From a virus, in UHGV virus genome UHGV-0110025: a stretch of 30,952 nt of DNA; one strand, 5' to 3'. Below the pieces are notes generated by a model. It was not told the origin of the DNA and did not search any database. It saw nothing but the letters and a program-made list of their open reading frames with translations. Position 1 is the stretch's first letter. Each line of letters starts with the position of its first letter. A program made the position numbers and the translations under genes. This document shows, one piece after another, positions 4,366-23,991 of the stretch.

Positions 4366-6588
4366 TTGGCTGTTCAATTCGCTTATCCGTGGAATGCTCC
4401 ACGATCGGCTATAGCCAGCCCATACCTTACTTATAAGCAACAGCATCGCCGCGACCGTATGTTCGCGGCGATGCTGCATGCTAAAAAGGTGCTTTCTCTC
4501 CAGCCCGACTGCGTGCGGTTAGATGTTTATCGCACTGCGGCAGTGCTGGAGCAAAATCAGGGCATTCAACGAGCCAATGCCTTTTTGATCAGCTTCTGCA
4601 AAAAGGCATTGCCGCGTCTTGAATTGGTCGCAAAAAAATACGAATGCGCGGGTATCAACAGCAAGGTATCAACCTCTGTTTTTGGAAGTCATTTTGATAC
4701 CCAGCTTATGCAATATCTGGCGTCACGCATGGTTAATATGGTCGCCCGATATAACCGCCTCCCGGATATGTCGCGCGCTGATGTTGACCTGTTGGCCGCC
4801 GATATTGCTAATTTCATTCGTGGTGAACTTGCCAACATTAATGACCACGGATTCGGCGAGCTTAAAACGCTGTACACCTGGTATAATCGTGCTGGCTTTA
4901 TTTCCCTCCAGTTCAACGTTATCCCCCCCCATTGGGATCGGGTTGCAAAAAAATATGTTGGCGCGGATGAAATCGCACCGGCTATCGCCAAGATGTTTAA
5001 CGATGGGTGGTGGCGTGGTCGTTTGCGCCGGGTTGCAGCTACGTGGCGCGAACACCTGCAAATTGCAGTCGGCAACGTCAGCAAGAAAAAAAACACCTAT
5101 GCGAGTAAAAACTGCGTGACTGACTGGCGTGAACAAAAGCGCCGAACTCGTGAATTTCTCAAAGGTCTGGATCTCGAAGACGAAGACGGCAACCGTATCA
5201 GCCTGATTGAAAAATATGATGGCTCAGTTGCTAACCCTGCGATTCGCCGCTGTGAGCTCATGACTCGCATTCGTGGGTTTGAAAACATCTGTAATGAGCT
5301 CGGTTATGTCGGTGAGTTTTACACTCTGACCGCGCCGTCGAAATATCACGCCACGACTAAAGCCGGTTACCGTAACAGCAAATGGAGCGGTGCCTGCCCG
5401 GCTGACACGCAAAACTATCTAACTGATATCTGGGCGCGTATCCGTGCCAAACTGCATCGGGAAGATGTCCGTATTTTCGGTATTCGTGTCGCCGAGCCCC
5501 ATCACGACGGTACTCCACACTGGCACATGCTGATGTTCATGCTGCCGGAAGATGTTGAATATGTTCGCTCCATCGTCCGTAAATACGCGTGGAAAGAAGA
5601 CCGCCGCGAACTGAAAAGCGATAAGGCAAAAAAAGCACGTTTCCACGCCGAGTCCATTGACCCGGAGAAAGGCAGCGCAACCGGCTATGTTGCTAAATAC
5701 ATATCAAAAAATATCGACGGTTATGCTCTCGATGGTGAAACCGATAATGAAAGCGGTGAACTGCTGAAAGAGACAGCCCCCGCCGTTTCAGCATGGGCTT
5801 CGCGCTGGCACATCCGTCAGTTTCAGTTTATCGGTGGTGCGCCGGTGACGGTTTACCGTGAGTTGCGTCGCCTCGCTGATACCGAAACCGCGCACGGACT
5901 GAGCGTTGAGTTTGCCGCCGTCCATGATGCCGCCGACGCTGGTGACTGGGCTGGTTATGTTAATGCGCAGGGTGGACCGTTTGTCCGTCGCGATGATTTA
6001 CAGGTGCGCACACTGTATGAACCACGTACCGAGCTTAATCAGTACGGTGAGGAAACGGTATGTATTAAGGGGGTCTACGATTCCTCCATAGGTGCAGGTA
6101 GCCCGATTTTAACCCGGCTCACTCAGTGGAAGATTGTTCCGAAGCATGCTGTTGATTTGGCCGTTGACCTTCAGGACGGCAAAGCCGTCCCTCGGAGTTC
6201 TGTCAATAACTGTACGGGAAGTGAAAGCGATCCACCGATACTGGATTTAACAAAACCACAGAGTCGGCGCGAAAGACGAGAGCTGACCAACCGACTCAGG
6301 AAGCAAAAACCAGCAATACGGCGAAAATTCGTCCACGGAATGGATGAGCAAAACGCAGCTATAGCGAAAACTATCGACGAGATACATCTGACAACCAGCA
6401 TCACAATCAGCCGGGGCGAAGCCCTGCACCTGATGGCAGGTGGGAAAAGCTGTTTTGATGGCAAATGGCTAAGGGGAACATCCAAAGGGGAGATATTTTC
6501 CACTGTCCCATCGAACCAAGCTAAAGCTAGTAAAATCCTCAATCGTGTTGCAGCGTTGGTAGAAGCATCAAAGTTAATAGATGATTAA
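4366..6588 (+). CDS. A: Replication initiation endonuclease gpA (rolling-circle HUH nickase)
   Basis: 740-aa ORF. HUH motif EPHHDGTPHWHMLMF and active-site Tyr region GYVAKYISKNIDG. Start as given is a TTG at 4366, immediately after the upstream stop; a downstream ATG start is possible. Confidence 0.92.
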   Translation: MAVQFAYPWNAPRSAIASPYLTYKQQHRRDRMFAAMLHAKKVLSLQPDCVRLDVYRTAAVLEQNQGIQRANAFLISFCKKALPRLELVAKKYECAGINSKVSTSVFGSHFDTQLMQYLASRMVNMVARYNRLPDMSRADVDLLAADIANFIRGELANINDHGFGELKTLYTWYNRAGFISLQFNVIPPHWDRVAKKYVGADEIAPAIAKMFNDGWWRGRLRRVAATWREHLQIAVGNVSKKKNTYASKNCVTDWREQKRRTREFLKGLDLEDEDGNRISLIEKYDGSVANPAIRRCELMTRIRGFENICNELGYVGEFYTLTAPSKYHATTKAGYRNSKWSGACPADTQNYLTDIWARIRAKLHREDVRIFGIRVAEPHHDGTPHWHMLMFMLPEDVEYVRSIVRKYAWKEDRRELKSDKAKKARFHAESIDPEKGSATGYVAKYISKNIDGYALDGETDNESGELLKETAPAVSAWASRWHIRQFQFIGGAPVTVYRELRRLADTETAHGLSVEFAAVHDAADAGDWAGYVNAQGGPFVRRDDLQVRTLYEPRTELNQYGEETVCIKGVYDSSIGAGSPILTRLTQWKIVPKHAVDLAVDLQDGKAVPRSSVNNCTGSESDPPILDLTKPQSRRERRELTNRLRKQKPAIRRKFVHGMDEQNAAIAKTIDEIHLTTSITISRGEALHLMAGGKSCFDGKWLRGTSKGEIFSTVPSNQAKASKILNRVAALVEASKLIDD

Positions 6589-6648
6589 TTTACATCCATA
6601 TCATGCACATACAATACCTGCATGATTCACTTTTTCTCTTCCCATCAT

Positions 6649-6682
6649 TTGCTAATACGTGATACTGTACAAATATACAGTT
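6649..6682 (+). promoter_or_regulatory. LexA-repressed promoter (SOS box), equivalent to 186 p95
   Basis: TACTGTACAAATATACAGTT at 6663-6682 matches the LexA consensus TACTGTATATATATACAGTA at 17/20, with a perfect CTGT-N8-ACAG core. TTGCTA (6649-6654) is a good -35 and the box overlaps the AT-rich -10 area. GGGAGGG SD and an ATG follow at 6703. Confidence 0.75.
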
Positions 6683-6702
6683 ATCATATTGGGAGGGATT
6701 TC

Positions 6703-6888
6703 ATGGTTGGGGAACATTTCAGCCGAACGCAGCAAAAGTGGGCTTGTGTGCAATTCATTGCCGAGATATCTCTGGTTGCAAACTGCAAGCCAGCAGACTT
6801 AAAGCTTGCGCTTACTCTCATTGCTGATCTGGCAAACAGCGAAAACAACGAAGAACCAGAAAATGAAGTCTTTTATAAGGCTGAATAG
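6703..6888 (+). CDS. Small acidic-tailed protein, first ORF of the SOS operon
   Basis: ORF 6622..6888 trimmed to the ATG at 6703, because the LexA box and promoter lie inside the longer version and GGGAGGG sits 6 nt upstream of 6703. It is in the same reading frame as the next ORF, separated only by TAG-GTT. Confidence 0.5.
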   Translation: MVGEHFSRTQQKWACVQFIAEISLVANCKPADLKLALTLIADLANSENNEEPENEVFYKAE

Positions 6889-6891
6889 GTT

Positions 6892-7148
6892 ATGAAAATT
6901 AATCTCACATTGGATAAGAAACAAAAACTAGGCCGACCGGTTATTGATGCCTTTCAATGCGAATTGACCAAGAGGACACTGTCTATTTTTCCGTCAACAT
7001 GTGGTGCCGTCAAGAGAGCACTATGAGTGGTGCTGAGTTGATGGAGTTTGATATAGATTCAGATCGCGAGGCGCTTGATGGTATTCTCCAAGAAATCTGG
7101 GAAGACGAGCAGTTGGCGGTAGTTAATGACAGAATGTGCAGACCATAA
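6892..7148 (+). pseudogene. DinI/Tum-like (antirepressor-type) gene split by a -1 frameshift
   Basis: 6892..7026 encodes MKINLTLDKKQKLGRPVIDAFQCELTKRTLSIF..., like the DinI N-terminus MRIEVTIAKTSPLPAGAIDALAGELSRRIQYAF. The -1 frame from ~6990 to 7148 encodes SVNMWCRQESTMSGAELMEFDIDSDREALDGILQEIWEDEQL, like the DinI C-terminus (...ISEILQETWESADDW). The frames switch at the T5 run 6986-6990. Confidence 0.6.
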
Positions 7149-7194
7149 CCCTATGTCTAGTTGCACGGAGGTTAGAAAAAATGCTGTCCGAATT

Positions 7195-7213
7195 AGCCCT
7201 CTCTCAGAGGGCT
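7195..7213 (+). terminator. Stem-loop after the SOS operon, possible terminator
   Basis: AGCCCTCT-ctc-AGAGGGCT is a perfect 8-bp stem. No immediate U-tract; a T5 run starts 17 nt downstream. Flanked by the direct repeat AAAAATGCTGT (7176-7186 and 7220-7230). Confidence 0.35.
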
Positions 7214-7346
7214 ATGAATTAAAAATGCTGTTTTTGATATGTTAACCTCTTAACAGTTTCATCTTTAAATCTTGTAAAGTAAAACTTTGCGTTTATGATT
7301 GATAAAAATTAAAAAAGTATGAAGAGGCTGTAAAGGAGTTTTATCA

Positions 7347-7862
7347 ATGCCTGGATTCCAAAATGCACAGCAAAATCAATTTGATGATCATGCTCCAGAA
7401 ATGGAGATAAACTTAATCGTAGATGTTGCTGAGCAGCCCGTAGCCTTTACCTATCAATATAGTGAGCAAATTAGCCACCTTGCACCGCAATGTCCGCCAG
7501 CAGAAGCGATTGAATGTGACAAAGAATGCTGGCGCTTCACTCTCAATCCGATAACGGACAGTTGCTTTTGGCCTCCAAAAAGAAGGGTTCCTGAGAGGGT
7601 TGCCTCAGACAGTCAGCAGGAGTGCTCTATGTGGGCGTTGTCTATGTATGAATCAGAGCGACAAGCTGTAGTCGCTTATTCTGGGCTTTCTAAGTCAGTG
7701 AGAAATATTAAGAAAACAATTGGAGATCACCTTGCAAGAGGCACGGTAGCTTGTGGTGATGGTAGATGTATGCCTCCAAATAGAAAAGGCCATTTTGACT
7801 TTCATCCATATTTAGATACTGAGTTCCCTGATGGCTTTCAGGTAATAAGAGCATTACCATGA
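7347..7862 (+). CDS. Hypothetical protein (171 aa), first gene of an accessory pair
   Basis: Strong SD AAAGGAG 8 nt upstream of the ATG. AT-rich upstream region. Its stop overlaps the next start (ATGA at 7859-7862). No domain recognised. Confidence 0.75.
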   Translation: MPGFQNAQQNQFDDHAPEMEINLIVDVAEQPVAFTYQYSEQISHLAPQCPPAEAIECDKECWRFTLNPITDSCFWPPKRRVPERVASDSQQECSMWALSMYESERQAVVAYSGLSKSVRNIKKTIGDHLARGTVACGDGRCMPPNRKGHFDFHPYLDTEFPDGFQVIRALP

Positions 7863-8947
7863 TAAAATTAGATGCTAAAAGAATCACTGCACCGGAGGTC
7901 GGAGATTACTCGTGGTATTCTGACTTGGTGTATTTTGATGGACCACTGATTTGTTTATTTCGAGGAAGTGGCTATAAGGATGCTCTTTATGTTTGGCTTG
8001 ATAATTCAACCAGAGCCAACCGCTGGTGTTTAATACCTGTATCAAGGTCAACTTTAGATTCCTATCTTAATCAAAGAATGAGTCTAAGAGAAATCATACA
8101 ATCAAACGAATATGTTTATATTTGCAATCACTTTGCAGAAACAGGACGAAAAAATTATAGCCGTCTGAGCGTAGATGATTTCCCTGAGGAATATATGCCT
8201 GATGCTGACTCATATTTATATGAAGAAATATGCACCGATGACGCACTATTGTTAAAGCAAGAACGCACATCTAGCTATATGCTAGGACTGGACAACCAGT
8301 TGTTTATAAATGATTTATCAGAAATTCCAAAAATTTTCGAACAATTGTATTCTTTCCACTATGGACTTGCCCACTTGGGCAGAATTTCCATTAGAAATAC
8401 CATGCTGCGATTGATGGGTAGTTGGACTGGTGGATTCTCAGCAGTAAATATTTTCACTGGTTTAAAGAATGTCATTCCTGTCCTGCACCGCCCAGAAGTT
8501 AGCTCACTTCAATATAACTCCCCCGGACATATTGAATTGAACTTGCTTCCTGACTTGGCGCAGAGCGTTCAGGATGTATCTGTTCGTGTTGAAAATGAAT
8601 TTATTTATGACCGTTTAGAGAAAATCTATAAAAACAATTACACATACTTTAAAGATAAAGATCTATCAGGTTTTGATGAGGGTGGAGGAATTGAGTTAAG
8701 GAACATCGACTCTGAAACCACAGAAAATCTTCGTAAGCGTGTTAGAATTTTCTTTAGGTGTTTAGGTTGGAAAACCTATCAAGCGCAGTTTGATATGATC
8801 GGTGCCCATCCCTTGCAGCAGTTACGCGCAGTTATGGCGTATTACAGACGCCTGAAAACATTACGAGAATATATTGTGGCAGATAAATTATTCATTGGTC
8901 ATTCGCGAGTGCCGGTAGAGCAAATTACTGTGAATACTGAAAATTAG
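7859..8947 (+). CDS. Hypothetical protein (362 aa), second gene of an accessory pair
   Basis: Long uninterrupted ORF in AT-rich DNA. Translationally coupled to the upstream gene. No catalytic motif or TM segment recognised. Confidence 0.8.
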   Translation: MIKLDAKRITAPEVGDYSWYSDLVYFDGPLICLFRGSGYKDALYVWLDNSTRANRWCLIPVSRSTLDSYLNQRMSLREIIQSNEYVYICNHFAETGRKNYSRLSVDDFPEEYMPDADSYLYEEICTDDALLLKQERTSSYMLGLDNQLFINDLSEIPKIFEQLYSFHYGLAHLGRISIRNTMLRLMGSWTGGFSAVNIFTGLKNVIPVLHRPEVSSLQYNSPGHIELNLLPDLAQSVQDVSVRVENEFIYDRLEKIYKNNYTYFKDKDLSGFDEGGGIELRNIDSETTENLRKRVRIFFRCLGWKTYQAQFDMIGAHPLQQLRAVMAYYRRLKTLREYIVADKLFIGHSRVPVEQITVNTEN

Positions 8948-9073
8948 CTTTCTGCATGAGGATGCGTGAATCTGCATTATTTATTAATTCAACCCATAGA
9001 TACTGTAGGACGCAATAGGCATGGGCTTGAGACCAAAATGCAACTGCATTAAAACCGCCCCATTAAGCGGGTA

Positions 9074-9092
9074 GGCGTGGCGGGGAAAGCAT
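9074..9092 (+). other. cos: cos cohesive-end sequence (19 nt)
   Basis: GGCGTGGCGGGGAAAGCAT matches the P2 cohesive end GGCGAGGCGGGGAAAGCAC at 17/19. From memory it is the 186 version. It sits in a GC-rich non-coding block upstream of the portal gene's 3' end, as in P2/186. Confidence 0.8.
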
Positions 9093-9311
9093 TGCGCGCC
9101 AGCAGTGATGCGTAATAATAAAAATTATCCTCTGAGCGCGTCGTGATGGCGCTGTCGTGGTCGCTGCTGGTTCGTTGGTGGTCGGGTGTGTTCGTGCGCG
9201 TGAGACGCATCTGATGCGTGATGGTGGTGTGCATGGAAAAGCCACCAGGAGCAGCGGCTTTACAGGAGTGGCAGGATTCAAACTGCTAATTATGTTTCTA
9301 CTATGATTAAA

Positions 9312-10316
9312 CTAATTTACATGTATGTAGAGTTCACCGTCGCCAGACCAATCGGGACACTCTAAAACAAGCCCAAACTGCTTGAATATTTCATCAATGA
9401 TTATTGTTATCTCCCGAAAATCACCAAAACCTGTAATGTGCTGGTCATTAAACTTCCCATAAAGATTCTGAAAAGCAATGCCTAATTCTGATAATTGATA
9501 TCTTATCTTTGAGTTGGATAGTGTAAGGGATAGCTTTGGATCGTATTCTTTAATATTGATGTTTAGAGAATGGACATAACCCATCGCATAAGCATAAGAG
9601 TTGATGATTAGCCTGATACGTTTTTTTACTTCGAGATACATGTCATTCAGAGAAATATTACCGTACTTATAACCCCAGATGAGTTTTTCAATCTCGTCAG
9701 ATACTTCATTTACAACAGTGTCAAGATTCTCTAAAAATAAATCAATAGTTTCTTGAGGGGCAGACCCCGAAGACATGTAATTAGCGAGATATTCAGACCA
9801 TGCACGCGTGGCTGAGATAAGAAGCGCGCTACCATACTCGTTGACTGTAAAATTTTGGGCTAAGCATGTTAGTAAGTTTTTTTCATGTACGTGCACTAAT
9901 TCATGGTGAATGCGATGGATGACTGCGAGGTATCCTTCTTCTTTCAGTTTTAAGAAGCTACCATCATTGAAAAGCTCAACAAAAAAATCAATCGATAGCA
10001 CAAGGGTATATTCTTCACATAGCCCATCATTGCCAATTTTTGTTACTAACTGCCCGACGGCTGCGCCCTGTTTGCTATTGGTAAATGAACTAGGGGATTT
10101 GTGTTGGTAAGAGGATGTTACCTTTTGAAGAGCTTCACTGAAGTTATAGGAAACAATCACGCATTTTAATTTGGAGATATCAAGATTGAGATTTTTTGTT
10201 AAAGCTCGGATAGCTTCTAGTGTGAAATTACCGATATTATTTGCTTCTTGCTCAGTAGCGAAACCTTCGAGGGTTATTTTAAAATCAGTTTCCAAAATAT
10301 TAATCTCCGCGCCCAT
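9312..10316 (-). CDS. Hypothetical protein (334 aa) with HExxH zinc-metallopeptidase-like motif
   Basis: Long ORF in very AT-rich DNA. HELVH is encoded at 9891-9905 (context AVIHRIHHELVHVHEK). No signal peptide or TM segment. No obvious SD. Confidence 0.78.
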   Translation of the reverse strand: MGAEINILETDFKITLEGFATEQEANNIGNFTLEAIRALTKNLNLDISKLKCVIVSYNFSEALQKVTSSYQHKSPSSFTNSKQGAAVGQLVTKIGNDGLCEEYTLVLSIDFFVELFNDGSFLKLKEEGYLAVIHRIHHELVHVHEKNLLTCLAQNFTVNEYGSALLISATRAWSEYLANYMSSGSAPQETIDLFLENLDTVVNEVSDEIEKLIWGYKYGNISLNDMYLEVKKRIRLIINSYAYAMGYVHSLNINIKEYDPKLSLTLSNSKIRYQLSELGIAFQNLYGKFNDQHITGFGDFREITIIIDEIFKQFGLVLECPDWSGDGELYIHVN

Positions 10317-10334
10317 TGTTTTGATATTCGATGC

Positions 10335-10363
10335 ACTATAGCTTTCGCAGATTGCATCTTCAA
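10335..10363 (-). promoter_or_regulatory. Candidate sigma70 promoter for the HExxH gene
   Basis: On the minus strand: TTGAAG (10363-10358), 17-nt spacer, TATAGT (10340-10335). Located between the portal stop (10394) and the ATG at 10316. Predicts a short leader. Confidence 0.5.
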
Positions 10364-10393
10364 TAATGAGCGCAGAGATTGTGGCGGCCTAAG

Positions 10394-11440
10394 TTATTCT
10401 GGGTTGTCGAGGGTGTACTCTTTGAACCTGATGACCTCCATACCGAGCCAGTCGTTTACCTCCCTGAACCTATCCTGCAGGGGTGACAGCTCATTACGCA
10501 CAAATACCTTTGCCACCTTCTCAACGTCACCGAGTGAACCGATATTCTCGGGCTTGCCGCCCATGAGCTGGAACGGTACGCGGTGCGCGTCCATCAGATC
10601 GGCGGCACTGGCCTTCTTGATGTTGAAAAAGTCATCCTTTGTGGCGACCTCGCTCAGTGGCACGATTTTGATGCCGTCCGGTTTTCCGCCGGGAGCGTAG
10701 AAAAACAGGTTCTTAAAGTTGCCGAGCCCTTTTGAGTTGCGCATCGCCTCGCGCAGCGATTCGACGTCGGTCGCGCTCTGCGCCGGGTCAGTCACATACA
10801 TGATGTAACCCGCGTGCGCGCCGTTCTGATAATACTTGCGGCGGAACAGCGTCGCGGATTCATTCAGCCAGGCGGAATTTAGCGCGCTGAGATATTCGGG
10901 CAGGCCGTAAATCTCCTGATTAATGTCGGGCTCCAGCAGGTGAAACACGGTATCAGGCGCGAACTCGTGCGGCTGGGTGAAGTTTTCCACAAACCAGAAA
11001 ATCGAATCGTCGACTCCGCGTCGGGTGTATTTGGCTGGCGAGGCCAGCAGTTTGATTAACTGGCCGGTGACGCTGTGGCGCTGCTCAAGAAAGGCGTTAC
11101 CGAACACCAGATAATCGAGCGCAAAGCGGCTGAAATCCTGACGGGATAACAACGGGTGCGGAATGTAGGTGCTCGCGAGCACGTTACGCTTAACATAAAT
11201 TGGCGAGCTGTGATGCACGGCAGAGCGCAGGCTCTTTGCCAGCCCTGAGAAGCTGACCGGCGGCTCGTACCATTTGCCGTTACTGATGCACTCGACGTAA
11301 TCCAGAATGTCGCGCTTATCGAGTACCGGCACCGGCTCGCCGAAGGTGAACGCTGTCGTTTTTGGCGGTGCGCTGGCGGTCAGTTGTTGTGGTTTGCTGG
11401 CCTTTTGTGCGTTGGCTTTACGGGATTTTTGTTTACCCAT
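10394..11440 (-). CDS. Q: Portal protein gpQ
   Basis: 348 aa, size and position of P2 Q. Adjacent to and co-oriented with terminase P. Conserved P2-like sequence. Confidence 0.95.
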   Translation of the reverse strand: MGKQKSRKANAQKASKPQQLTASAPPKTTAFTFGEPVPVLDKRDILDYVECISNGKWYEPPVSFSGLAKSLRSAVHHSSPIYVKRNVLASTYIPHPLLSRQDFSRFALDYLVFGNAFLEQRHSVTGQLIKLLASPAKYTRRGVDDSIFWFVENFTQPHEFAPDTVFHLLEPDINQEIYGLPEYLSALNSAWLNESATLFRRKYYQNGAHAGYIMYVTDPAQSATDVESLREAMRNSKGLGNFKNLFFYAPGGKPDGIKIVPLSEVATKDDFFNIKKASAADLMDAHRVPFQLMGGKPENIGSLGDVEKVAKVFVRNELSPLQDRFREVNDWLGMEVIRFKEYTLDNPE

Positions 11441-11441
11441 T

Positions 11442-13211
11442 TTAGTTGAACTCCAGAATAGATTTAGGCTGCATGCCGCTACCGGCAGAAAGCGGTTCGT
11501 TTAACAGGGCGTGCATGGTCGCCCATGCGATATCGGCGTGGCTGGCTTCCTCGGTGCGGCTGGCCTCATAGGTGGCGCTGCGCCCGCTGCTGGTCATGGT
11601 TTTGCGGATGGACATAAACGACTGCGTGACGTCGGTTGCTCCGGCGTCGTACTCCAGACAGCCACGGCGAATGGTGTCTTTCGCCTTGAGTACCATTGCG
11701 GTTTTCATTTCAGGTGTGTAACGGATGCCGCGTGCCGCCGGGTAAAATGAGCGCACCAGCTGGAACACGCCGAGACCGAGGCCGGTTGCGTCAATGCCGA
11801 TGTATTCGACGTTGTATTTCTCGGTCAGCTTGCGGATGCCCTCTGCCTGTGCTGCAAAATCCATGCCCTTCCACTGGTGGCGCTCCAGCATGCGGAACTT
11901 GCCACCAGAGACCACCGGCGGCGCGAGCACGACGCACCCGGCACTGTCGCCGGTGTGTGACGGGTCGTAGCCAATCCAGACAGGACGAGAGCCGAACGGA
12001 TGGTCGGCGAACGGGGCAAAGTCCTCCCATTCCTCCATCACATCGACCATGCAGCGCTGCAGCTCCTCGAACGGGAATACCGACGCTTTATCGTCGACAA
12101 ACTCGCACATAAACAGGTTCTTAAAGTCCTCATCACTGTTTTCGCGTTTGAGCTGGTCGAGGTCGAACAGGGTGCAGCCACCCGCAAGGGCGTCCTCAAT
12201 GGTGACAATCTGCCGCCACTGGCCATCGTCGCAGAGCTGGCCACCGGCGAGCGCGCTGTGACTGATGTCGATTTCGATGCGGTCGGCAATCCGGCTGCGC
12301 CCCTTGTTGAACAGCTCGCCAGACCAGAAGGGGTAAGCGCCGTGCGCCAGCGTGGAAGGTGTCGAAAAATAGGTCGAGCGCAGGTGCTTTTGCGAGGCCA
12401 TGCCCGAGGCGACTTTGCGCAGTTTCTGAAAATTCGGGATCCAGAATATTTCATCGACATACAGATCGCCGTTATGGCTCTGCGCGGTGTTGGAATTGGT
12501 ACCGAGAAAAATCAGTTTTGCGCCGTTGTTACCGATGACAATCGGGTCGCCAGTCAGGTCAACGTCGACCAGTCGCGCAAACTGGATGATGTATTCGCGG
12601 AACACGTAAGCCTGCGTTTTACTGGCTGATAAAAATATCTGGTTATGGCCGGTTTTGAGTGCGCGCAGCAGTGCCTCGCGGGAGAAATAGAATGTCGCGC
12701 CAATCTGGCGGGATTTGAGAATGTCACGAATACGGTGCTCCAGTCCTGCGCGGTACCACTGCAACTGGTACTCGAAAGACTGGTCGAAAAATAATTCCTC
12801 TAGTTTATCGATAGCCTCGTCGCTGAAAAAATTCTTTTTCGGCTTTTTGCGCTCCCCTTTGTTGCGGTTGGCGACGTTGGGGTTAAGGTCGGCTTCGTTG
12901 CCGGTCTGGCTGTAGCGGTTGACTCGCGCCAACCGTTCAATCTGCCGTCCGAGCAGGTCAATCTCTTTGAAATCACCCCCTGTCTTTTGCGGCTTGGCGA
13001 TGAGCTGAATCAGCCTAGCCTCAAGGCTGCTTTCAACGCGGGAAATCGGCGCGATGCCGTCCCAGCCGTCGCGCTGCTTCCAGCTCTGCACGGTCGGGCG
13101 CTTGACCTGCAGCATTTCGGCAATCTGTGGCACGGAAAAACCCTGCCAGTAAAGCAGCGATGCCTGCCGTCGCGGGTCATGCAACAAGGTTGTATCGGTG
13201 GAAATGGTCAT
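11442..13211 (-). CDS. P: Terminase large (ATPase) subunit gpP
   Basis: 589 aa (P2 P is ~590). Its stop lies 1 nt before the Q start. Divergent from O. Confidence 0.95.
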   Translation of the reverse strand: MTISTDTTLLHDPRRQASLLYWQGFSVPQIAEMLQVKRPTVQSWKQRDGWDGIAPISRVESSLEARLIQLIAKPQKTGGDFKEIDLLGRQIERLARVNRYSQTGNEADLNPNVANRNKGERKKPKKNFFSDEAIDKLEELFFDQSFEYQLQWYRAGLEHRIRDILKSRQIGATFYFSREALLRALKTGHNQIFLSASKTQAYVFREYIIQFARLVDVDLTGDPIVIGNNGAKLIFLGTNSNTAQSHNGDLYVDEIFWIPNFQKLRKVASGMASQKHLRSTYFSTPSTLAHGAYPFWSGELFNKGRSRIADRIEIDISHSALAGGQLCDDGQWRQIVTIEDALAGGCTLFDLDQLKRENSDEDFKNLFMCEFVDDKASVFPFEELQRCMVDVMEEWEDFAPFADHPFGSRPVWIGYDPSHTGDSAGCVVLAPPVVSGGKFRMLERHQWKGMDFAAQAEGIRKLTEKYNVEYIGIDATGLGLGVFQLVRSFYPAARGIRYTPEMKTAMVLKAKDTIRRGCLEYDAGATDVTQSFMSIRKTMTSSGRSATYEASRTEEASHADIAWATMHALLNEPLSAGSGMQPKSILEFN

Positions 13212-13376
13212 TGATGCCTCGCCGTAGTGGATTCAGGGCAAGGCTACTTAATGGCCGTCAGTGATTCGCTAAGGTGCTGTTGTGTGGGCGGTTGTCCAGT
13301 CGTCATTGGTGGTCTGGCGTGTCCTGAGTCTGGAAACTGGCGGTGACCAGTAACCTCAACCTCAGGACTCCTGACA
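13212..13376. promoter_or_regulatory. Divergent late-promoter region (P2 PP/PO equivalent)
   Basis: Called by synteny only: a 165-bp gap between divergent P and O. I could not find a clean TGT-N12-ACA activator dyad here. Confidence 0.4.
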
Positions 13377-14231
13377 ATGGCAAAAAAAGTCTCAAAATTC
13401 TTTCGCATCGGCGTCGAGGGTGACACCTGCGACGGCCGCATTATCAGCGGCAACGATATTCAGGAAATGGCCGAATCGTTTGACCCTCGCGTCTACGGTT
13501 GCCGCATTAACCTTGAGCATATTCGCGGTCTCTTTCCTGATGGCGACTTCAAACGCTTAGGCGATGTGGTTGAACTGAAAGCTGAAATAATTGACGACGA
13601 TTCTGCGCTTAACGGCAAATGGGCGTTGTTCGCCAGAATCACCCCAACCGACGACCTGATTGCGATGAATAAAAAATTGCAGAAGGTCTACACCTCAATG
13701 GAAATTCAGCCGAATTTTGCCAATACCGGCAAATGCTACCTCGTCGGCCTTGCTGTCACCGATGACCCGGCGAGCCTCGGCACTGAATACCTCGAATTCT
13801 GCCGCAACGCGAAGCACAACCCTCTGCAGCGCTTTAAGGCCAACCCTGAAAACGTTTTTTCCGCTGCCACGCTGGCCGAACTGGAATTTGAAGACGTTCC
13901 CGATACGGTGCTAAACAGCCTGGCAGATAAGGTGAAAGCCATTTTCAGCCGTAAGCAGGTCAGCGACGATGCGCGCCTGAATGATGTGCATGAAGCGGTG
14001 AGCACCGTCAGCGAGCATGTGCAGACCAACCTCACTGCGCAGGATAAGCGTCTTTCCGCTATGGAAGCCGCGCTTACCACCTTTAAACAGGAACTGACCG
14101 GCAAGATTGAAGAAACCAGCCAGGCATTTTCCGCCCTGAAAGCCACCCTCGACAAAACCGAAAGTTTCAGCCAGCCGCGACGCACGAAAGCCAGCGGCGG
14201 TGGTGGCGATGAGCTGCTGACCGACTGCTGA
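13377..14231 (+). CDS. O: Capsid scaffold protein gpO
   Basis: 284 aa, same size and position as P2 O. Conserved N-terminus MAKKVSKFFRIGVEGDTCDGR. Confidence 0.92.
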   Translation: MAKKVSKFFRIGVEGDTCDGRIISGNDIQEMAESFDPRVYGCRINLEHIRGLFPDGDFKRLGDVVELKAEIIDDDSALNGKWALFARITPTDDLIAMNKKLQKVYTSMEIQPNFANTGKCYLVGLAVTDDPASLGTEYLEFCRNAKHNPLQRFKANPENVFSAATLAELEFEDVPDTVLNSLADKVKAIFSRKQVSDDARLNDVHEAVSTVSEHVQTNLTAQDKRLSAMEAALTTFKQELTGKIEETSQAFSALKATLDKTESFSQPRRTKASGGGGDELLTDC

Positions 14232-14250
14232 TAAACCGCAGACCAGAAAC

Positions 14251-14269
14251 CGGGCGGTAACTCCGCCCG
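14251..14269 (+). other. GC-rich stem-loop between O and N
   Basis: CGGGCGG-taact-CCGCCCG is a perfect 7-bp stem. No U-tract follows. Confidence 0.4.
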
Positions 14270-14307
14270 ATGCAGTGACTAACCGATAAATTCAAACAGG
14301 AAATACT

Positions 14308-15375
14308 ATGCGCCCGGAAACCCGTTTTAAGTTCAATGCCTATCTGACCCGCGTCGCTGAGCTGAACGGCATCAGCACTGATGACGTCAGTAAAAAATTC
14401 ACCGTCGAGCCGTCCGTCACGCAAACGCTGATGAACAAAGTGCAGGAGTCATCCGCGTTTCTGCAGACGATTAACATTCTGCCGGTTGCAGAAATGAAGG
14501 GTGAGAAAATCGGCGTCGGTGTGACCGGTACTATCGCCAGCACGACCGACACCTCGGGCGATGATGAGCGTAAGACCGCAGACTTCACCGCGCTTGAGTC
14601 CAACAAGTACGAGTGCGACCAGATTAACTTTGACTTCCATCTGAAATATAAAACCCTCGACCTGTGGGCGCGTTTTCAGGACTTTCAGCGCCGCATCCGT
14701 GACGCCATTGTTAAGCGTCAGGCGCTCGATTTCATCATGGCCGGTTTTAACGGTACCACCCGCGCCGCCACCTCTGACCGCACCAAAAATCCGATGCTGC
14801 AGGATGTAGCCGTCGGCTGGCTGCAGAAATACCGCAACGAAGCCCCGACGCGTGTGATGAGCAATATCACCGATGCTGACGGTAAGGTCGTTTCGGCAGT
14901 GATTCGCGTCGGTAAAAACGGCGACTATGAGAACCTCGACGCGCTGGTGATGGATGCTACCAACAACCTGATTGACGAGGTTTATCAGGATGACCCGAAA
15001 CTCGTTGCCATCGTTGGCCGTAAGCTGCTGGCCGACAAATATTTCCCGCTGGTGAACAAGCCGCAAGAAAACAGCGAAGCGCTCGCGGCAGATATCATCA
15101 TCAGCCAGAAGCGAATCGGCAACCTGCCTGCTGTGCGTGTGCCGTACTTCCCGGCGAATGCCGTGTTAGTGACAACGCTGGAAAACCTCTCTATCTATTT
15201 CATGGATGAGAGCCACCGCCGCAGCATTGATGAAAACCCGAAAAAAGACCGCGTGGAAAACTACGAGTCAATGAATATCGACTATGTGGTCGAGGCGTAT
15301 GCCGCCGGGTGTCTGCTGGAAAACATCACCCTGGGCGATTTCACCGCACCTGCAGCACCGGAAAGCGGAGAGTAA
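14308..15375 (+). CDS. N: Major capsid protein gpN
   Basis: 355 aa, position and size of P2 N. SD AGGAAA upstream. Confidence 0.95.
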   Translation: MRPETRFKFNAYLTRVAELNGISTDDVSKKFTVEPSVTQTLMNKVQESSAFLQTINILPVAEMKGEKIGVGVTGTIASTTDTSGDDERKTADFTALESNKYECDQINFDFHLKYKTLDLWARFQDFQRRIRDAIVKRQALDFIMAGFNGTTRAATSDRTKNPMLQDVAVGWLQKYRNEAPTRVMSNITDADGKVVSAVIRVGKNGDYENLDALVMDATNNLIDEVYQDDPKLVAIVGRKLLADKYFPLVNKPQENSEALAADIIISQKRIGNLPAVRVPYFPANAVLVTTLENLSIYFMDESHRRSIDENPKKDRVENYESMNIDYVVEAYAAGCLLENITLGDFTAPAAPESGE

Positions 15376-15379
15376 GCCC

Positions 15380-16129
15380 ATGACGAGCCCCGCACAGCGT
15401 CACATGATGCGGGTCTCGGCCTCTCAAGCCGCGCAGCGGGAACAAGCCCCGCTGCGCCATGCAACCGCCTACGAGCAGATGCTGGTAAAGCTGGCCGATG
15501 ACCGCCGCACGTTGAAAACCATCCGTTCAAACGAACTGAAAGCCGCGAAAAAGCGTGAGCTGCTGCCGTTCTATGCGCCGTGGGTCGCCGGTGTGCTGGC
15601 TGATGGCCGTGGTGCGCAGGATGACATTCTGATGACAGTCATGCTGTGGCGTCTCGATGCCGGTGATATCGCTGGCGCGCTGGAAATTGCGCCATACGCG
15701 CTGAAGTACGGCCTCACCTCTGACTATCGCCGCACGACACCTTACATGCTGGTTGAGGAGGTGGCGCTTGCCGCGCTGCGCCTGCGCGATGCCGGTGAGC
15801 CTGTCGACCTCGCATTACTGCTGACCACCCTTAGCCTGACCGACGGCGCTGACGTTCCCGATATGGTGCGCGCTCGACTGCATAAGGTGACCGGTCTAAC
15901 CCTGCGCGATGCCGGTCAGAGCGCCGAAGCACTGGCACAGTTTCAGCGCGCGATGCAGCTCGACCGCAATGCCGGTGTGCGCAAAGAGATTGAGCGACTG
16001 GAGCGGGCATTGAAGCCTAAGCCCGATGCCGCGCCCCGTAAAACGACTAAACCGCGCACGCGCAAACCTGCCACCAAACCGGCGGCAAAGCGCGGGCGTC
16101 CACCAAAGGCGGTAAAAACCGCCGGTTAA
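15380..16129 (+). CDS. M: Terminase small/endonuclease subunit gpM
   Basis: ORF 15284..16129 trimmed to the ATG at 15380 (MTSPAQRHMMRV), just after the N stop. 249 aa, like P2 M. Basic Lys/Pro/Arg-rich C-terminal tail. Confidence 0.9.
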   Translation: MTSPAQRHMMRVSASQAAQREQAPLRHATAYEQMLVKLADDRRTLKTIRSNELKAAKKRELLPFYAPWVAGVLADGRGAQDDILMTVMLWRLDAGDIAGALEIAPYALKYGLTSDYRRTTPYMLVEEVALAALRLRDAGEPVDLALLLTTLSLTDGADVPDMVRARLHKVTGLTLRDAGQSAEALAQFQRAMQLDRNAGVRKEIERLERALKPKPDAAPRKTTKPRTRKPATKPAAKRGRPPKAVKTAG

Positions 16130-16222
16130 CTGAACGCTCCCCGAGCCGGGCGGCACGCCGGTCAAAGCGGGTTTTGACCCTGACGGCGACCGGCGTCCAC
16201 CGCCCAACCTAATGAGGTTGTC

Positions 16223-16732
16223 ATGACGACAGTAATACTGAATCAGCCCGACGAACCGCAGGACGTACCGGGCGTGGTGATTCCCGCACCGGAGACGGGC
16301 GACGCAGTGATTAAAAACACGTTCTTTTTCCCTGATGTGGATCCGAAGCGGGTGCGCGAGCTGATGCGCCTTGAGCAGACGGTTTCCGATGCGCGCCTGC
16401 GCAACGCCATCAAGACCGGCATGGCGGAAACCAATGCGGAGCTTTACGACTACCGGCTGCGCCAGATTGCCGCAGGGTTTAAGACACTGGCCGACGTGCC
16501 TGACGCCGAGGAAATCGACGGCGAGAATGTGCGCGTTTTCCACTACCTCAGCGCCGTGACGGCGATGGCGACCGCCACCCTGTATGAGCGTTATCGCGGG
16601 GTTGAGGCCACCGGCAAGGGTGACAAAAAAGCCGACAGCGTCGAAACCACCATTGATGACCTGTGGCGGGATATGCGCTGGTCGGTCTCGCGCCTGCAGG
16701 ATAAGCCGCGCTGCATCGTGGGTCAGCTCTGA
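16223..16732 (+). CDS. L: Head completion/stabilisation protein gpL
   Basis: 169 aa, same size and position as P2 L. Confidence 0.9.
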   Translation: MTTVILNQPDEPQDVPGVVIPAPETGDAVIKNTFFFPDVDPKRVRELMRLEQTVSDARLRNAIKTGMAETNAELYDYRLRQIAAGFKTLADVPDAEEIDGENVRVFHYLSAVTAMATATLYERYRGVEATGKGDKKADSVETTIDDLWRDMRWSVSRLQDKPRCIVGQL

Positions 16733-16935
16733 TGAAAGTCTACGCGATGCAGGGCGACACCATCGACGCGCTTTGCGCCCGGTATTACGGGCGCACTGAG
16801 GGCGTGGTCGAGGCTGTGCTGCAGGCTAATCCCGGTCTGTCTGAGCTGGGCGTCATTCTGCCGCATGGCACGGCAATTGACCTGCCCGACGTGGCATCGT
16901 CACCCGTAACAGAAACTATCAACCTTTGGGAGTAA
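16732..16935 (+). CDS. X: Tail protein X (LysM-like)
   Basis: 67 aa. MKVYAMQGDTIDALCARYYGRT..., typical gpX. ATGA overlap with L. Confidence 0.88.
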   Translation: MKVYAMQGDTIDALCARYYGRTEGVVEAVLQANPGLSELGVILPHGTAIDLPDVASSPVTETINLWE

Positions 16936-16938
16936 ACC

Positions 16939-17235
16939 ATGACAGAAGGGGAAAAAGGCGTCCTGTCACTGTTTGTGATTGGCGTGATGATTGTTGTCGG
17001 AAAAGTGCTGGCGGGTGGTGAGCCCATTACCCCGCGCCTGTTTATCGGCCGCATGCTGCTCGGCGGTTTTGTTTCAATGGTCGCCGGTGTTGTTCTGGTG
17101 CAGTTTCCAGATATGTCACTGCCTGCCGTTTGTGGGATTGGATCCATGCTCGGCATTGCAGGTTATCAGGTGGTGGAAATCGCCATTCAGCGCCGCTTTA
17201 AGTCACAACAGGGGGATAGCGATGCCGGTCATTAA
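16939..17235 (+). CDS. Y: Holin
   Basis: 98 aa with hydrophobic helices and a charged C-terminus. Sits immediately upstream of the endolysin, the position of P2 Y. Confidence 0.8.
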   Translation: MTEGEKGVLSLFVIGVMIVVGKVLAGGEPITPRLFIGRMLLGGFVSMVAGVVLVQFPDMSLPAVCGIGSMLGIAGYQVVEIAIQRRFKSQQGDSDAGH

Positions 17236-17719
17236 TACTCACCAGAATATCGCCGCGTTTCTGGACATGCTGGCCTATTCCGAAGGGACGGCGATGCATC
17301 CGCTGACGAAAAATCGTGGTTACGACGTCATTGTCACTGGCATTGATGGCAAGCCGGAAATTTTCACCGACTACACCGACCACCCTTTCGCACATGGCAG
17401 ACCAGCGAAAGTGTTTAATCGACGCGGCGAAAAATCCACGGCATCAGGGCGTTACCAGCAGCTTTATCTCTACTGGCCGCACTATCAGAAACAGCTCGCA
17501 TTGCCTGATTTCAGCCCGTTGTCGCAGGACAAACTTGCGATTCAGTTAATCCGGGAGCGCGGTGCCATTGAGGATATTAAAGCGGGGCGTATTGAGCGAG
17601 CAATTTCACGTTGCCGCAATATATGGGCGTCGCTGCCGGGTGCAGGTTACGGCCAGCGTGAGCACAGCCTCGACAAACTGGTCACTGTGTGGCGCACGGC
17701 TGGCGGGGTGATGGCATGA
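17222..17719 (+). CDS. K: Endolysin gpK (lambda R-like lysozyme/transglycosylase family)
   Basis: ORF 16991..17719 trimmed to the ATG at 17222. MPVINTHQNIAAFLDMLAYSEGT is the conserved gpK N-terminus with the catalytic E in YSEGT. Confidence 0.92.
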   Translation: MPVINTHQNIAAFLDMLAYSEGTAMHPLTKNRGYDVIVTGIDGKPEIFTDYTDHPFAHGRPAKVFNRRGEKSTASGRYQQLYLYWPHYQKQLALPDFSPLSQDKLAIQLIRERGAIEDIKAGRIERAISRCRNIWASLPGAGYGQREHSLDKLVTVWRTAGGVMA

Positions 17720-18129
17720 AAATCCTGATAACGCTGCTGGTGCTGGCCGTGCTCGGGCTGCTGTGGTTGCGCCATGAGAACGGCAATTTATCCCGCTCCT
17801 TTGAGACGGCAAACCGCGTCGCAAGCGAACAAAAGACGACGATTGGCATGCTGAAAAATCAGCTCAGTGTTGCCGGTCAGCTTGCCCGACGTAATGAATC
17901 CGCGCAGGTGGAACTGCGCGAACAGCTCGCAAAGGCCAGCGCAGAGGCCAGCCGCCGTGAGCAGACGATAACGAGGTTACTTAATGAAAATGAAGCCTTT
18001 CGCCGCTGGTATAACGCTGCTTTGCCTGATGTTGTGCGTCGGCTGCACACCCGCACCGCCTGCGCCAGTGCCGGTGATTGTGGTCAGCGGATGCCCGAGG
18101 GTGAGCCTTTGTCCGATGCCGGGAAGTGA
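17716..18129 (+). CDS. lysB: i-spanin (LysB/Rz-like)
   Basis: ATG at 17716 overlaps the K stop (ATGA). N-terminal TM helix MKILITLLVLAVLGLLWL followed by a coiled-coil-like Q/E/R-rich region. Confidence 0.8.
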   Translation: MKILITLLVLAVLGLLWLRHENGNLSRSFETANRVASEQKTTIGMLKNQLSVAGQLARRNESAQVELREQLAKASAEASRREQTITRLLNENEAFRRWYNAALPDVVRRLHTRTACASAGDCGQRMPEGEPLSDAGK

Positions 18130-18274
18130 CCCGAAAACCAATGGTGACCTGAGCGCAGATATCCGCCGTCTTGAGGGCGCGCTGACCGCCTGCGCGCTGC
18201 AGGTTAAAACCGTCAAACACTGTCAGGATGAACTCGATGCAGAAGCACAAAAGCCTGCGCAAAGCGCTGATTAA
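17984..18274 (+). CDS. lysC: o-spanin lipoprotein (LysC/Rz1-like), overlapping lysB out of frame
   Basis: Signal sequence ending LMLCVGC, followed by a Pro-rich mature part (TPAPPAPVPV). The start is embedded in the +1 frame of lysB, the usual Rz/Rz1 architecture. Confidence 0.8.
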   Translation: MKMKPFAAGITLLCLMLCVGCTPAPPAPVPVIVVSGCPRVSLCPMPGSDPKTNGDLSADIRRLEGALTACALQVKTVKHCQDELDAEAQKPAQSAD

Positions 18275-18704
18275 CGCCGTGCCGCAGCTCCGAAATAATC
18301 CCGATATGCTGCGCCTTTTTGCCGACAACGGCCATACCGATTCCCGACTGGCGAGCTCGCTGTCGTTTGAAAAGGTGTACGTGCTTAACGTGGTGGTTAC
18401 CGACTTCACCGGTGACCTTGATTTGATATTCGTGCCGGTGCAGGCGTGGCTGCGTGAACATCAGCCGGACATTATGACCACCGACGACGGGCGGGAAAAA
18501 AGATTCACCTGGATTATTGATATCAATAACGACGATTCGCTCGATATCAGTATCAGCCTGAGGCTCACCGAGCGCACGCTCGTCAAAGAGGTCGACGGCG
18601 CGCTGCACGTCAGCTATGCCCCTGAGCCGCCACTGCCTGAGCCGGTGACGCGCCCGGTCGAGCTGTACGTTAACGGCGAACTGGTGAGTAAGTGGGATGA
18701 GTGA
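18228..18704 (+). CDS. R: Tail completion protein gpR
   Basis: ~155 aa. Conserved gpR features (LSFEK.Y.LNVVVTDFTGD, ELYVNGELVSKWDE). The start may be the ATG at 18237. Confidence 0.87.
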   Translation: MNSMQKHKSLRKALINAVPQLRNNPDMLRLFADNGHTDSRLASSLSFEKVYVLNVVVTDFTGDLDLIFVPVQAWLREHQPDIMTTDDGREKRFTWIIDINNDDSLDISISLRLTERTLVKEVDGALHVSYAPEPPLPEPVTRPVELYVNGELVSKWDE

Positions 18705-19143
18705 ATTAACCGCGCTGCAGGAACGCCTTGCCGGTCTGATTGCCAGCCTGTCACCGGCGGCACGTCGGCAAATGGCGGCTGAGATTGCGAAAAAGCTGCG
18801 TACCAGTCAGCAACAGCGTATCAAGCGCCAGCAGGCACCCGACGGCACCCCGTATGCGGCACGAAAGCGCCAGCCGGTGCGGAGCAAGAAAGGTCGGATT
18901 AAACGTGAAATGTTCGCCAAACTGCGCACCAGTCGCTTTATGAAAGCCAAAGGCAGCGACAGTGCGGCGGTGGTGGAGTTTACCGGCAAGGTGCAGCGCA
19001 TGGCGCGGGTTCATCAGTACGGCCTCAAAGACCGGCCAAACCGTAACAGCCGGGATGTGCAGTACGAGGCGCGCCCGTTGCTCGGTTTCAATAGTATAGA
19101 TATGAGAATTATTGAGCGGTTAATAATTGGGGCTTTGGATTAA
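18697..19143 (+). CDS. S: Tail completion protein gpS
   Basis: 148 aa, position and size of P2 S. The last ~18 codons (from ~19090) are encoded in AT-rich DNA. Confidence 0.87.
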   Translation: MSELTALQERLAGLIASLSPAARRQMAAEIAKKLRTSQQQRIKRQQAPDGTPYAARKRQPVRSKKGRIKREMFAKLRTSRFMKAKGSDSAAVVEFTGKVQRMARVHQYGLKDRPNRNSRDVQYEARPLLGFNSIDMRIIERLIIGALD

Positions 19144-19197: not shown

Positions 19198-19842
19198 TTA
19201 TAGTTTGAAATCTGCGTAATTATCAATAACCTCTAGAACACCGCTGATATTGTTATCTCTGCGCCAATTCCAATTGCCATGTATCAAATTTGCATTAGAA
19301 TAAAGATATCTAAGGAACTGAGATGGTAAGAGTGGTTTGTTGCATAAAAATTCATCATAACTATTACTCATATACCACACATATCCATTTTTAATGTCAA
19401 AACTTAAATTCTCACCTTCAATTTTCTTAAAGTTAATTTCTTTATTTAGAGCATTTTCAAACTCTTGTGTATAATAAACACAGTGTATATGAGCGTGAGA
19501 AATGCACCCTCCTGAACGATCTATATTTTCACCTGCTCCGCTTTCAAAGAAAATTAGAGATCTACCAGATTGGTGGATTATAAATTCATTAAGTTCTCGC
19601 AGAATCTCCTTGCCATTACTCCGGGTATCTCGATCAAGAGCAGCAAAGGAGTTGATATGCCGCTTAGGAATCAGCATCACATGCGAATTATTTAGCGGGC
19701 CAATACTAGGTACAATTAGAAAATCATTTGTTTCTGCAATGATATTTTTCTTGTCATTTACGATTTCATCGTATCCTTTGATAAGGCTAATGCCATTTAT
19801 TTCATCGCATATTCCACAGAACGAATTACAAGAATTATTCAC
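19198..19842 (-). CDS. HIT-family (histidine triad) nucleotide hydrolase/transferase-like protein with C-terminal extension
   Basis: GTG start at 19842 with AGGAGA SD 8 nt upstream. N-terminal CGIC. FLIVPSIGPLNNSHVMLIPKRH core. His triad HAHIH is encoded at 19483-19497. A ~90-aa extra C-terminal region follows. DNA is very AT-rich. Confidence 0.85.
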   Translation of the reverse strand: MNNSCNSFCGICDEINGISLIKGYDEIVNDKKNIIAETNDFLIVPSIGPLNNSHVMLIPKRHINSFAALDRDTRSNGKEILRELNEFIIHQSGRSLIFFESGAGENIDRSGGCISHAHIHCVYYTQEFENALNKEINFKKIEGENLSFDIKNGYVWYMSNSYDEFLCNKPLLPSQFLRYLYSNANLIHGNWNWRRDNNISGVLEVIDNYADFKL

Positions 19843-20407
19843 GTTTATTGTCTCCTGGTTTTTTAGGGAGCAATTTTTCAGCCCAAGATGCGAGTCGGCT
19901 TAGAACTAAGTCTGAAAAATATCCTAATATAAAACAAATCGAGAATGCAATTTTGGTCTTACCATGCCCTTTAATGGAGGATACAAACGTATCCGGAGAT
20001 AATATCGTATAAGAACAAAAAGCCACTAAAGCAGCTAAGAACGGAATAAAAATCCTCCAGTAGAACTTATGGGATTCCCAAGGAAAATTATACTGATTGT
20101 TTTTCCCTCTAGCAGTTACTCTATAAAACCATTTTGCATTATACACCCACCCTCCAAAAAAACCGCCAAGAATAGAAAACAAAGATATTTTATTATTATA
20201 TGACAGCTCAAAAACAAATTGGAAAAGAAAGGCGAGAATGCAACCTATTACAAAAAGAACTATTAAATAAGCAAATTCGAATTTTATTTGTTCACAATCG
20301 TTATTAAAATAAGGCACAACCTCATCATCGCCTAAGGTTTTTTTTCTTTCAGTCATTTGCCAAACACCTTCATTTTTTACTGTGAGCCAGGGTAATTGCA
20401 TATTCAA
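19835..20407 (-). CDS. Integral membrane protein, about four predicted TM helices
   Basis: Hydrophobic segments FAYLIVLFVIGCILAFLFQFVF, ISLFSILGGFFGGWVY, FYWRIFIPFLAALVAFCSYTIL and IAFSICFILGYFSDLVL. The 3' end overlaps the HIT gene start by 8 nt. 20407 is a TTG; the real start may be the ATG at 20401, or the ATG at 20356 (MTERKK, preceded by GAAGG). Confidence 0.8.
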   Translation of the reverse strand: MNMQLPWLTVKNEGVWQMTERKKTLGDDEVVPYFNNDCEQIKFEFAYLIVLFVIGCILAFLFQFVFELSYNNKISLFSILGGFFGGWVYNAKWFYRVTARGKNNQYNFPWESHKFYWRIFIPFLAALVAFCSYTILSPDTFVSSIKGHGKTKIAFSICFILGYFSDLVLSRLASWAEKLLPKKPGDNKRE

Positions 20408-23990: not shown

Positions 23991-23991
23991 G

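Follow-up and report, generated by a model that had tools for sequence, protein, structure and literature searches.

A PD-T4-10-type toxin-antitoxin operon carried as prophage cargo, with a probable ADP-ribosyltransferase-like fold in its antitoxin

The window analyzed here is the whole of the virus genome UHGV-0110025 (30,952 nucleotides), and the subject is a pair of overlapping open reading frames (ORFs) on its plus strand. Both start with ATG, the first (7347-7862, gene A) encoding 171 residues and the second (7859-8947, gene B) 362 residues. In identity and overall logic, the pair is likely a diverged but working PD-T4-10 toxin-antitoxin operon that travels as cargo in a P2/PSP3-like Escherichia coli prophage. 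The original prediction, made by eye from the letters, had called the two proteins unrecognizable and had proposed a two-component accessory system, most plausibly anti-phage or a toxin-partner pair. The first statement holds by eye only, as both proteins match curated PADLOC defense models over their full length. The second proved right for a PD-T4-10 homologue, both phenotypes having been published for the prototype (PMC9519451).

Identity and layout of the gene pair

Gene A matches the PADLOC model PD-T4-10_A (PDLC04023) with an E-value of 6.5e-69 and 228 bits (profile positions 4-148 of 148), and gene B matches PD-T4-10_B (PDLC04024) with an E-value of 3.3e-169 and 561 bits (positions 1-351 of 353). 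The A model, the full-length B model and the adjacent, same-strand, overlapping order of A followed by B are all found here. The system is already named, was validated experimentally for its ECOR65 prototype and is caught by standard defense-annotation models. It is not new, and the novelty that had been assumed for the pair gives way to this confident homology with a named defense system. As a genome feature, the pair adds little: it is one more catalogued defense system in a well-known prophage hotspot, which PADLOC or DefenseFinder would label.

PD-T4-10 was found by functional selection in a P2-like prophage of E. coli ECOR65 (Vassallo et al. 2022, Nat Microbiol, PMC9519451), where two overlapping ORFs encode the proteins RCO36089.1 and RCO36088.1. 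The system was shown to act by abortive infection and to protect strongly against T-even phages. B alone is toxic and is fully neutralized by A; A could not be deleted, and the deletion of B abolishes T4 resistance (PMC9519451). Neither protein has a predicted function in the original paper, and the HHpred tables of its authors contain nothing above 20% probability (PMC9519451). Searches of both proteins against Pfam, PHROGs and NCBIfam returned only a sub-threshold DUF6575 match on B, and profile searches of the A and B families against all PDB sequences retrieved no relatives.

A copy with 76% identity at the DNA level is present in 13 of 5,426 complete E. coli genomes. Compared to the copy of E. 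coli 13C1079T, the identity is 67% for protein A and 88% for protein B. The exact protein sequences are already deposited at NCBI as E. coli 'hypothetical protein' (EEW5022342.1 and EOT9954674.1), and their 90%-identity clusters also include proteins from Klebsiella and Raoultella. Among 50,697 phage records, DNA and tblastn searches found no copy of either gene. Relative to the E. coli and Raoultella copies, the ratio of nonsynonymous to synonymous substitution rates (dN/dS) is 0.125 and 0.184 for A and 0.03 for B, with A gaining amino acid changes 3-5 times faster than B. These low ratios indicate purifying selection on both genes, which would be consistent with a retained function, and they rule out pseudogenes or chance ORFs.

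The layout of the operon agrees with what had been described originally: a strong AAAGGAG Shine-Dalgarno sequence in front of gene 1, an ATGA overlap between the two genes and the absence of transmembrane helices (highest 19-residue Kyte-Doolittle scores of 0.59 for A and 1.13 for B). The coordinates are collected in Table 1. An identical 4-bp overlap occurs in 11 of the 17 comparison loci (L001-L017), while most others display other short overlaps or spacers of at most 10 nt. Upstream of gene A, about 125 bp are kept in three copies that are only about 76% identical overall. This stretch spans the promoter-like pair, of which both hexamers are invariant, and a palindrome, the arms of which are conserved in the E. 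coli copy and, but for one mismatch, in the Raoultella copy. The promoter scan yielded no excess of such sites in the region over shuffled sequence, and it is therefore the conservation that carries the promoter argument. The palindrome is a candidate operator. The hairpin located further upstream is not conserved in the 13C1079T copy; judging from its sequence, it is probably the terminator of the upstream early operon (replication gene A and a DinI-like gene). Within 6500-10500, there is no Rfam match and no relevant tandem array, which excludes an RNA antitoxin and hence a type III toxin-antitoxin system.

Table 1. Features of the PD-T4-10 operon and its surroundings (window coordinates)
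Feature	Position	Strand	Remark
Hairpin TAGCCCTCT-CTC-AGAGGGCTA, then T-rich stretch	7194..7214	+	perfect 9-bp inverted repeat
Palindrome TGTTAA-cctc-TTAACA	7240..7255	+	just upstream of the -35 hexamer; sequence reading
Sigma-70-like promoter TTGTAA-16 nt-TATGAT	7272..7299	+	promoter scan, 9/12 matches; 48 nt upstream of the gene A start
Shine-Dalgarno AAAGGAG of gene A	7332..7338	+	8 nt before ATG; kept in three copies
PD-T4-10A antitoxin (171 aa)	7347..7862	+	residues 1-33, tail; residues 34-171, core (nt 7446-7859)
ATGA, stop of A and start of B	7859..7862	+	sequence; putative translational coupling
PD-T4-10B N-terminal domain (residues 1-122)	7859..8224	+	beta-rich, DUF6575 core; profile matches in all partners tested
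PD-T4-10B C-terminal domain (residues 123-362) and stop codon	8225..8947	+	putative toxic effector
Presumed cos core	9074..9092	+	context only; right-hand limit of the cargo slot between replication gene A and cos

Domain architecture of A and B

The two genes are conserved together, and the pair co-occurs in every locus examined. In a word-indexed search, the B family comprises 108 clusters at 90% identity, mostly from Gammaproteobacteria. A single-sequence search with A recovers only 13 clusters, and a word-indexed search with an A profile 81. When HMMER is run exhaustively with that profile over 1.84 billion representatives, 1,697 clusters are found at E<=1e-3 and 1,125 at E<=1e-10. The A family thus counts about 1,700 clusters at 50% identity, and no Pfam model exists for it. 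In all 16 loci recovered from a collection with one genome per species, B is directly preceded by an A-like ORF of 136-170 residues, which in one locus (L017) is broken up into two. These loci come from six phyla and include Opitutaceae, Caldilinea, Desulfobacterales and Chitinophagaceae. Conversely, a protein with the N-terminal DUF6575 domain is encoded directly downstream of all seven divergent A homologues that were looked up. Several of these divergent loci lie amid defense or toxin-antitoxin genes (AAA_15/21 ATPases, RVT_1, HEPN, PIN and SocA_Panacea).

Protein A consists of a tail (residues 1-33), which is disordered, fast-evolving and found in Enterobacterales only, and a compact alpha/beta core (residues 34-171), modeled confidently, with a predicted local distance difference test score (pLDDT) above 94. 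In the predicted fold, the order of the strands matches the topology of ADP-ribosyltransferases (ARTs), and the closest structural neighbors are nearly all toxins. Three residues are nearly invariant among 137 sequences with a mean column identity of 26%: Arg63 in strand 1 (59-65), Ser99 in strand 2 (98-101, followed by a helix) and His149 at the start of strand 5 (149-155). They are retained whichever C-terminal domain the partner has, and they fall on the canonical ART triad positions when mapped by strand order, not by superposition. The third position is a His in A and not the catalytic Glu, Asp or Gln, giving a putative R-S-H motif versus R-S-E or H-Y-E/D/Q. Searched against the PDB with Foldseek, A had no significant match. 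In a permissive Pfam scan (E<=10), the 137 family members showed no match to, or enrichment of, any ART family; none of the ART families among the PDB sequences was matched by the A profile, and none appeared in the HHpred run of the original authors. The ART reading is weakened by the Foldseek result, the missing sequence link and the His at the third position. Therefore, the fold of the core, as modeled, is called probably ART-like here. In the literature searched, an ART-like fold is not mentioned for PD-T4-10A.

The original prediction also described protein A as Cys-rich, with six cysteines between residues 49 and 94 and two more near 145-150. There are in fact seven (at 49, 57, 61, 73, 93, 136 and 141), none of them near 145-150. 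Two of the seven, C49 and C93, are the only ones conserved in the family, which rules out a zinc-finger or Cys-rich reading of A. No helix-turn-helix, ribbon-helix-helix or AbrB match was found in A with Pfam, and the prediction is that of a single alpha/beta ART-like domain plus the disordered tail. In a few A-family members (P0174, P0272, P0314 and positions 127-828 of L026), an N-terminal DUF3127 domain (E-values of 1e-5 to 6e-10) is fused to the ART-like core, and in L026 this fusion is followed by a short DUF6575-N partner of 133 residues. The DUF3127 fusions gave no functional clue.

Protein B was modeled confidently by AlphaFold, with a pLDDT of 91 and a predicted template modeling score (pTM) of 0.88. 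Its N-terminal domain is beta-rich up to about residue 105 and is followed by a mostly helical region, in which the helices of the C-terminal domain are arranged around a small ferredoxin-like beta-alpha-beta-beta-alpha unit. The Pfam DUF6575 match covers residues 43-116 (E-value 1.8e-4) and, with 21.5 bits, lies below the gathering cut-off of 26.6 bits. However, DUF6575 is matched at E<=0.01 by 46 of 63 aligned members of the B family, and the E. coli orthologue is named 'DUF6575 domain-containing protein' in RefSeq. By transitivity, B therefore belongs to DUF6575. No relative of the C-terminal domain was found among known families, and the 362-residue protein matches no known toxin family.

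The two domains of B behave very differently across the family. A hidden Markov model (HMM) built from residues 1-122 recognizes each of the 14 partner proteins tested (E-values of 1e-15 to 1e-32), whereas one built from residues 123-362 recognizes the long forms only. Invariant in the N-terminal domain are D22, L23, F26, G28, P29, W46, D48, R55, W56, P109, Y112, P114 and S118. In five loci (L015, L019, L021, L023 and L026), the partner is reduced to this domain (133-169 residues), and in L025 it counts 430 residues with an unrelated C-terminal region. In L024, a partner of 670 residues matches PD-T4-10_B over residues 1-125 (E-value 7.5e-34) and the DRT8 reverse transcriptase over residues 154-664 (E-value 2.8e-137; Pfam RVT_1 E-value 1.2e-14). 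This hybrid of PD-T4-10B-N and DRT8 is located in the JGI metagenome 3300037479 (L024, 4001-6444), directly after an A homologue of 143 residues, and links two named systems.

Since only the N-terminal domain is universal and the C-terminal part is swapped or absent, A and the N-terminal domain of B look like a portable control cassette. We infer that the N-terminal domain serves docking and control together with A; the C-terminal part would be an exchangeable effector and, in PD-T4-10 proper, the toxin. From the L024 fusion it would follow that the same control cassette serves both this effector and DRT8. The domain findings thus hint at a general design of a control cassette plus interchangeable effector. 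The value of the present analysis lies in these leads on the mechanism, which are unpublished in the literature searched: an antitoxin with an ART-like fold, a toxin of two domains, and the cassette of A and B-N fused to DRT8.

Mechanism and alternative explanations

In the proposed mechanism, the operon would be transcribed in the lysogen from its own conserved promoter, and the ATGA overlap would lead to the synthesis of A and B in coupled amounts. A would keep B inactive by engaging its N-terminal DUF6575 domain (residues 1-122). This hold is most likely a stoichiometric complex, in which the conserved ART-like pocket of A may be part of the interface or bind a ligand. Infection by a T-even phage would then remove or disable A, the partner that evolves 3-5 times faster than B and that carries the disordered N-terminal tail in enterobacteria. 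Subsequently, the freed C-terminal domain of B (residues 123-362) would stop cell growth before the release of phage progeny. Its invariant His, Arg, Tyr and Ser suggest that it may be an enzyme with a nucleotide or nucleic acid as its substrate. T-even phages inject and express ADP-ribosyltransferases of their own (Alt, ModA and ModB), and a connection of these to an ART-like sensor or antitoxin is speculation only.

Several points weigh against this mechanism. Protein A shares just 67% identity with its closest E. coli counterpart in the comparison (13C1079T, which is not the ECOR65 prototype), so that the phage range could differ. The contact of A with the N-terminal domain of B is a possibility to which only their co-occurrence points. 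The loci with partners consisting of the N-terminal domain only show no obvious toxin, and therefore fit poorly to a simple model with A as antitoxin and the C-terminal domain of B as toxin. Canonical type II autoregulation is unlikely, given that A lacks a fold for DNA binding. Finally, the many conserved polar residues of A would suggest an enzyme rather than a passive binder.

The last point leads to an alternative in which A is an enzymatic (type VII-like) antitoxin. An active ART-fold A would use NAD+ to modify B covalently, or would reverse or pre-empt the product of B; infection would lower the activity of A or the supply of its substrate, and B would be unleashed. We regard this as somewhat unlikely. 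It is favored by the nearly invariant Arg63, Ser99 and His149 at the three canonical triad positions and by their retention regardless of the C-terminal domain of the partner. However, no sequence-level link to any ART family was found even at E<=10, the third triad position is His instead of Glu, Asp or Gln, and the triad was mapped by strand order and not by structural superposition. The conserved residues could equally form an interface with the N-terminal domain of B, which is just as conserved. A broader form of the same idea is that A represents a catalytically active, unrecognized ART branch (about 1,700 clusters, with an R-S-H triad) that serves as an enzymatic antitoxin and forms, together with DUF6575-N, a portable sensing and control cassette gating interchangeable effectors, such as the PD-T4-10B toxin domain, the DRT8 reverse transcriptase and others. 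This is unlikely. If true, it would be the first case of an ART-fold protein that neutralizes the toxin of a toxin-antitoxin system instead of being that toxin, and would amount to a new toxin-antitoxin logic.

The roles might also be inverted at the level of the family, the ART-like A being the ancestral effector and DUF6575-N its sensor or regulator, to which the toxic C-terminal domain of B was added later. The many loci in which A is paired with an N-domain-only partner of 133-169 residues and no recognizable toxin would fit such a history, as would the prevalence of toxins among the closest structural neighbors of A and the sheer size of its family. Nevertheless, A of PD-T4-10 alone was not reported to be toxic, while B is toxic and its deletion abolishes defense (PMC9519451). 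With B present here in its complete long form, inverted roles are quite improbable.

The copy could furthermore be mainly an addiction or stabilization module of the prophage, of no useful effect in phage defense. Toxin-antitoxin pairs can stabilize mobile elements, and one in three residues of A is different in the E. coli copy. On the other hand, the pair occupies the same defense hotspot as the E. coli PD-T4-10 copies, both genes are under strong purifying selection, and distant homologues are located outside prophages amid AAA_15/21 ATPases, reverse transcriptases, HEPN proteins and PanA-type antitoxins. A role mainly in stabilization is hence very improbable, and a PD-T4-10 operon that functions as toxin-antitoxin defense is the preferred reading.

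Cargo slot and related systems

Taken as a whole, the window is the genome of a PSP3/P2-like peduovirus, with Escherichia phage vB_EcoM-613R3 as best match (96% identity over 81% of the query). The cargo slot is flanked upstream by replication gene A (GpA, 4366-6588; Pfam Phage_GPA, E-value 4e-131) and downstream by the portal gene (10394-11440). The GC content is 0.40 in the gene pair and in 6589-10393, versus 0.57 in the structural genes (10394-19000). Downstream of the pair lies the sequence GGCGTGGCGGGGAAAGCAT (9074-9092), which we take to be the cos core; it has two mismatches to the P2 cos sequence, with 0.05 matches expected by chance. The AT-rich block and the P2 hotspot between gene A and cos in the original prediction are both borne out by these data, the E. 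coli homologues being located in the same hotspot. Vassallo et al. 2022 place four of their systems in the interval from the P2 replication endonuclease to the portal gene (PMC9519451).

Between cos and the portal gene lies a second cargo gene of the hotspot, an AT-rich ORF of 334 residues on the minus strand (9312-10316). PADLOC and Pfam gave no match for it, while PHROGs matched it to phrog_11743, of unknown function; an HExxH motif (HHELVH, residues 138-142) suggests a metallopeptidase. Under the name 'hypothetical protein', the ORF is present in 26 complete E. coli genomes (best match 99.8% identical, at least 99% in 25 of the 26), and therefore travels independently of this PD-T4-10 variant. 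It is a candidate for an uncharacterized defense or moron gene. In E. coli 13C1079T (L001), the replication endonuclease is followed by a small ORF, the frameshifted DinI-like gene, the pair, an AIPR gene and then the portal gene. There, the AIPR-family (abortive-infection-type) gene (L001 10885-12636) follows the pair in place of the 334-residue ORF, which points to a mosaic reassortment of cargo within one hotspot.

Directly upstream of the pair, the DinI-like gene (6892-7148, plus strand) is split over two frames (ORFs 6892-7026 and 6957-7148). Only its C-terminal piece matches DinI (Pfam E-value 0.009; phrog_189 E-value 6e-7), and the 13C1079T copy is annotated as 'frameshifted'. Either a conserved pseudogene or a programmed frameshift would explain this. 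Elsewhere in the window, a very AT-rich island (19198-20407, minus strand, GC content 0.33-0.38) lies between the ORFs 18697-19143 and 20533-21168, which by position alone are presumably the tail-completion S and baseplate V genes. The island holds two overlapping genes for a HIT-family protein of 214 residues (HAHIH motif; Pfam HIT, DcpS_C and CwfJ_C_1, E-values of 1e-4 to 2e-6) and a basic membrane protein of 190 residues, neither of them with a PADLOC match. It could be an uncatalogued two-gene cargo or defense module at an unusual P2 insertion point. Other dips in GC content are found at 23501-24000 (0.42) and 1001-2500 (0.40-0.45), against a backbone of about 0.55.

Among the known systems, the predicted fold of A resembles the ART-fold toxins of RES-Xre (MbcTA, ParST and VPA0770/0769), DarTG and CmdTAC (PD-T4-9). 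They too occur in toxin-antitoxin or defense operons, and CmdTAC also targets T-even phages (PMC11618068). In these systems, however, the ART fold belongs to the toxin, and not to the antitoxin as is probable here. They share no sequence similarity with A, and a putative R-S-H motif stands against R-S-E, H-Y-E or the RES motif.

The pair also shares several traits with the type II toxin-antitoxin modules that act by abortive infection: the antitoxin is a protein encoded upstream, the genes overlap, the antitoxin evolves faster, and abortive infection was published for the prototype. In contrast to these modules, A lacks a helix-turn-helix, ribbon-helix-helix or other DNA-binding fold and has instead a globular ART-like core with conserved polar residues. 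Its toxin B is large (362 residues), composed of two domains and outside the known toxin families.

With DRT8, the common element is the N-terminal domain of PD-T4-10B, which in L024, the only locus with such a fusion, is joined to a complete DRT8 reverse transcriptase after a PD-T4-10A homologue. B of the present pair differs by the absence of a reverse-transcriptase domain and by an unrelated C-terminal domain, and in PADLOC it is matched by PD-T4-10_B models only. Compared to the PD-T4-10 prototype itself, the pair has the same overlapping ORFs in the order A then B, nearly the same lengths (171 residues for A, and 362 versus 363 for B) and the same slot in a P2-like prophage. It differs in belonging to a diverged lineage that is common to Klebsiella and Raoultella, with 76% identity at the DNA level, 67% for A and 88% for B relative to the E. 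coli copy from a complete genome.

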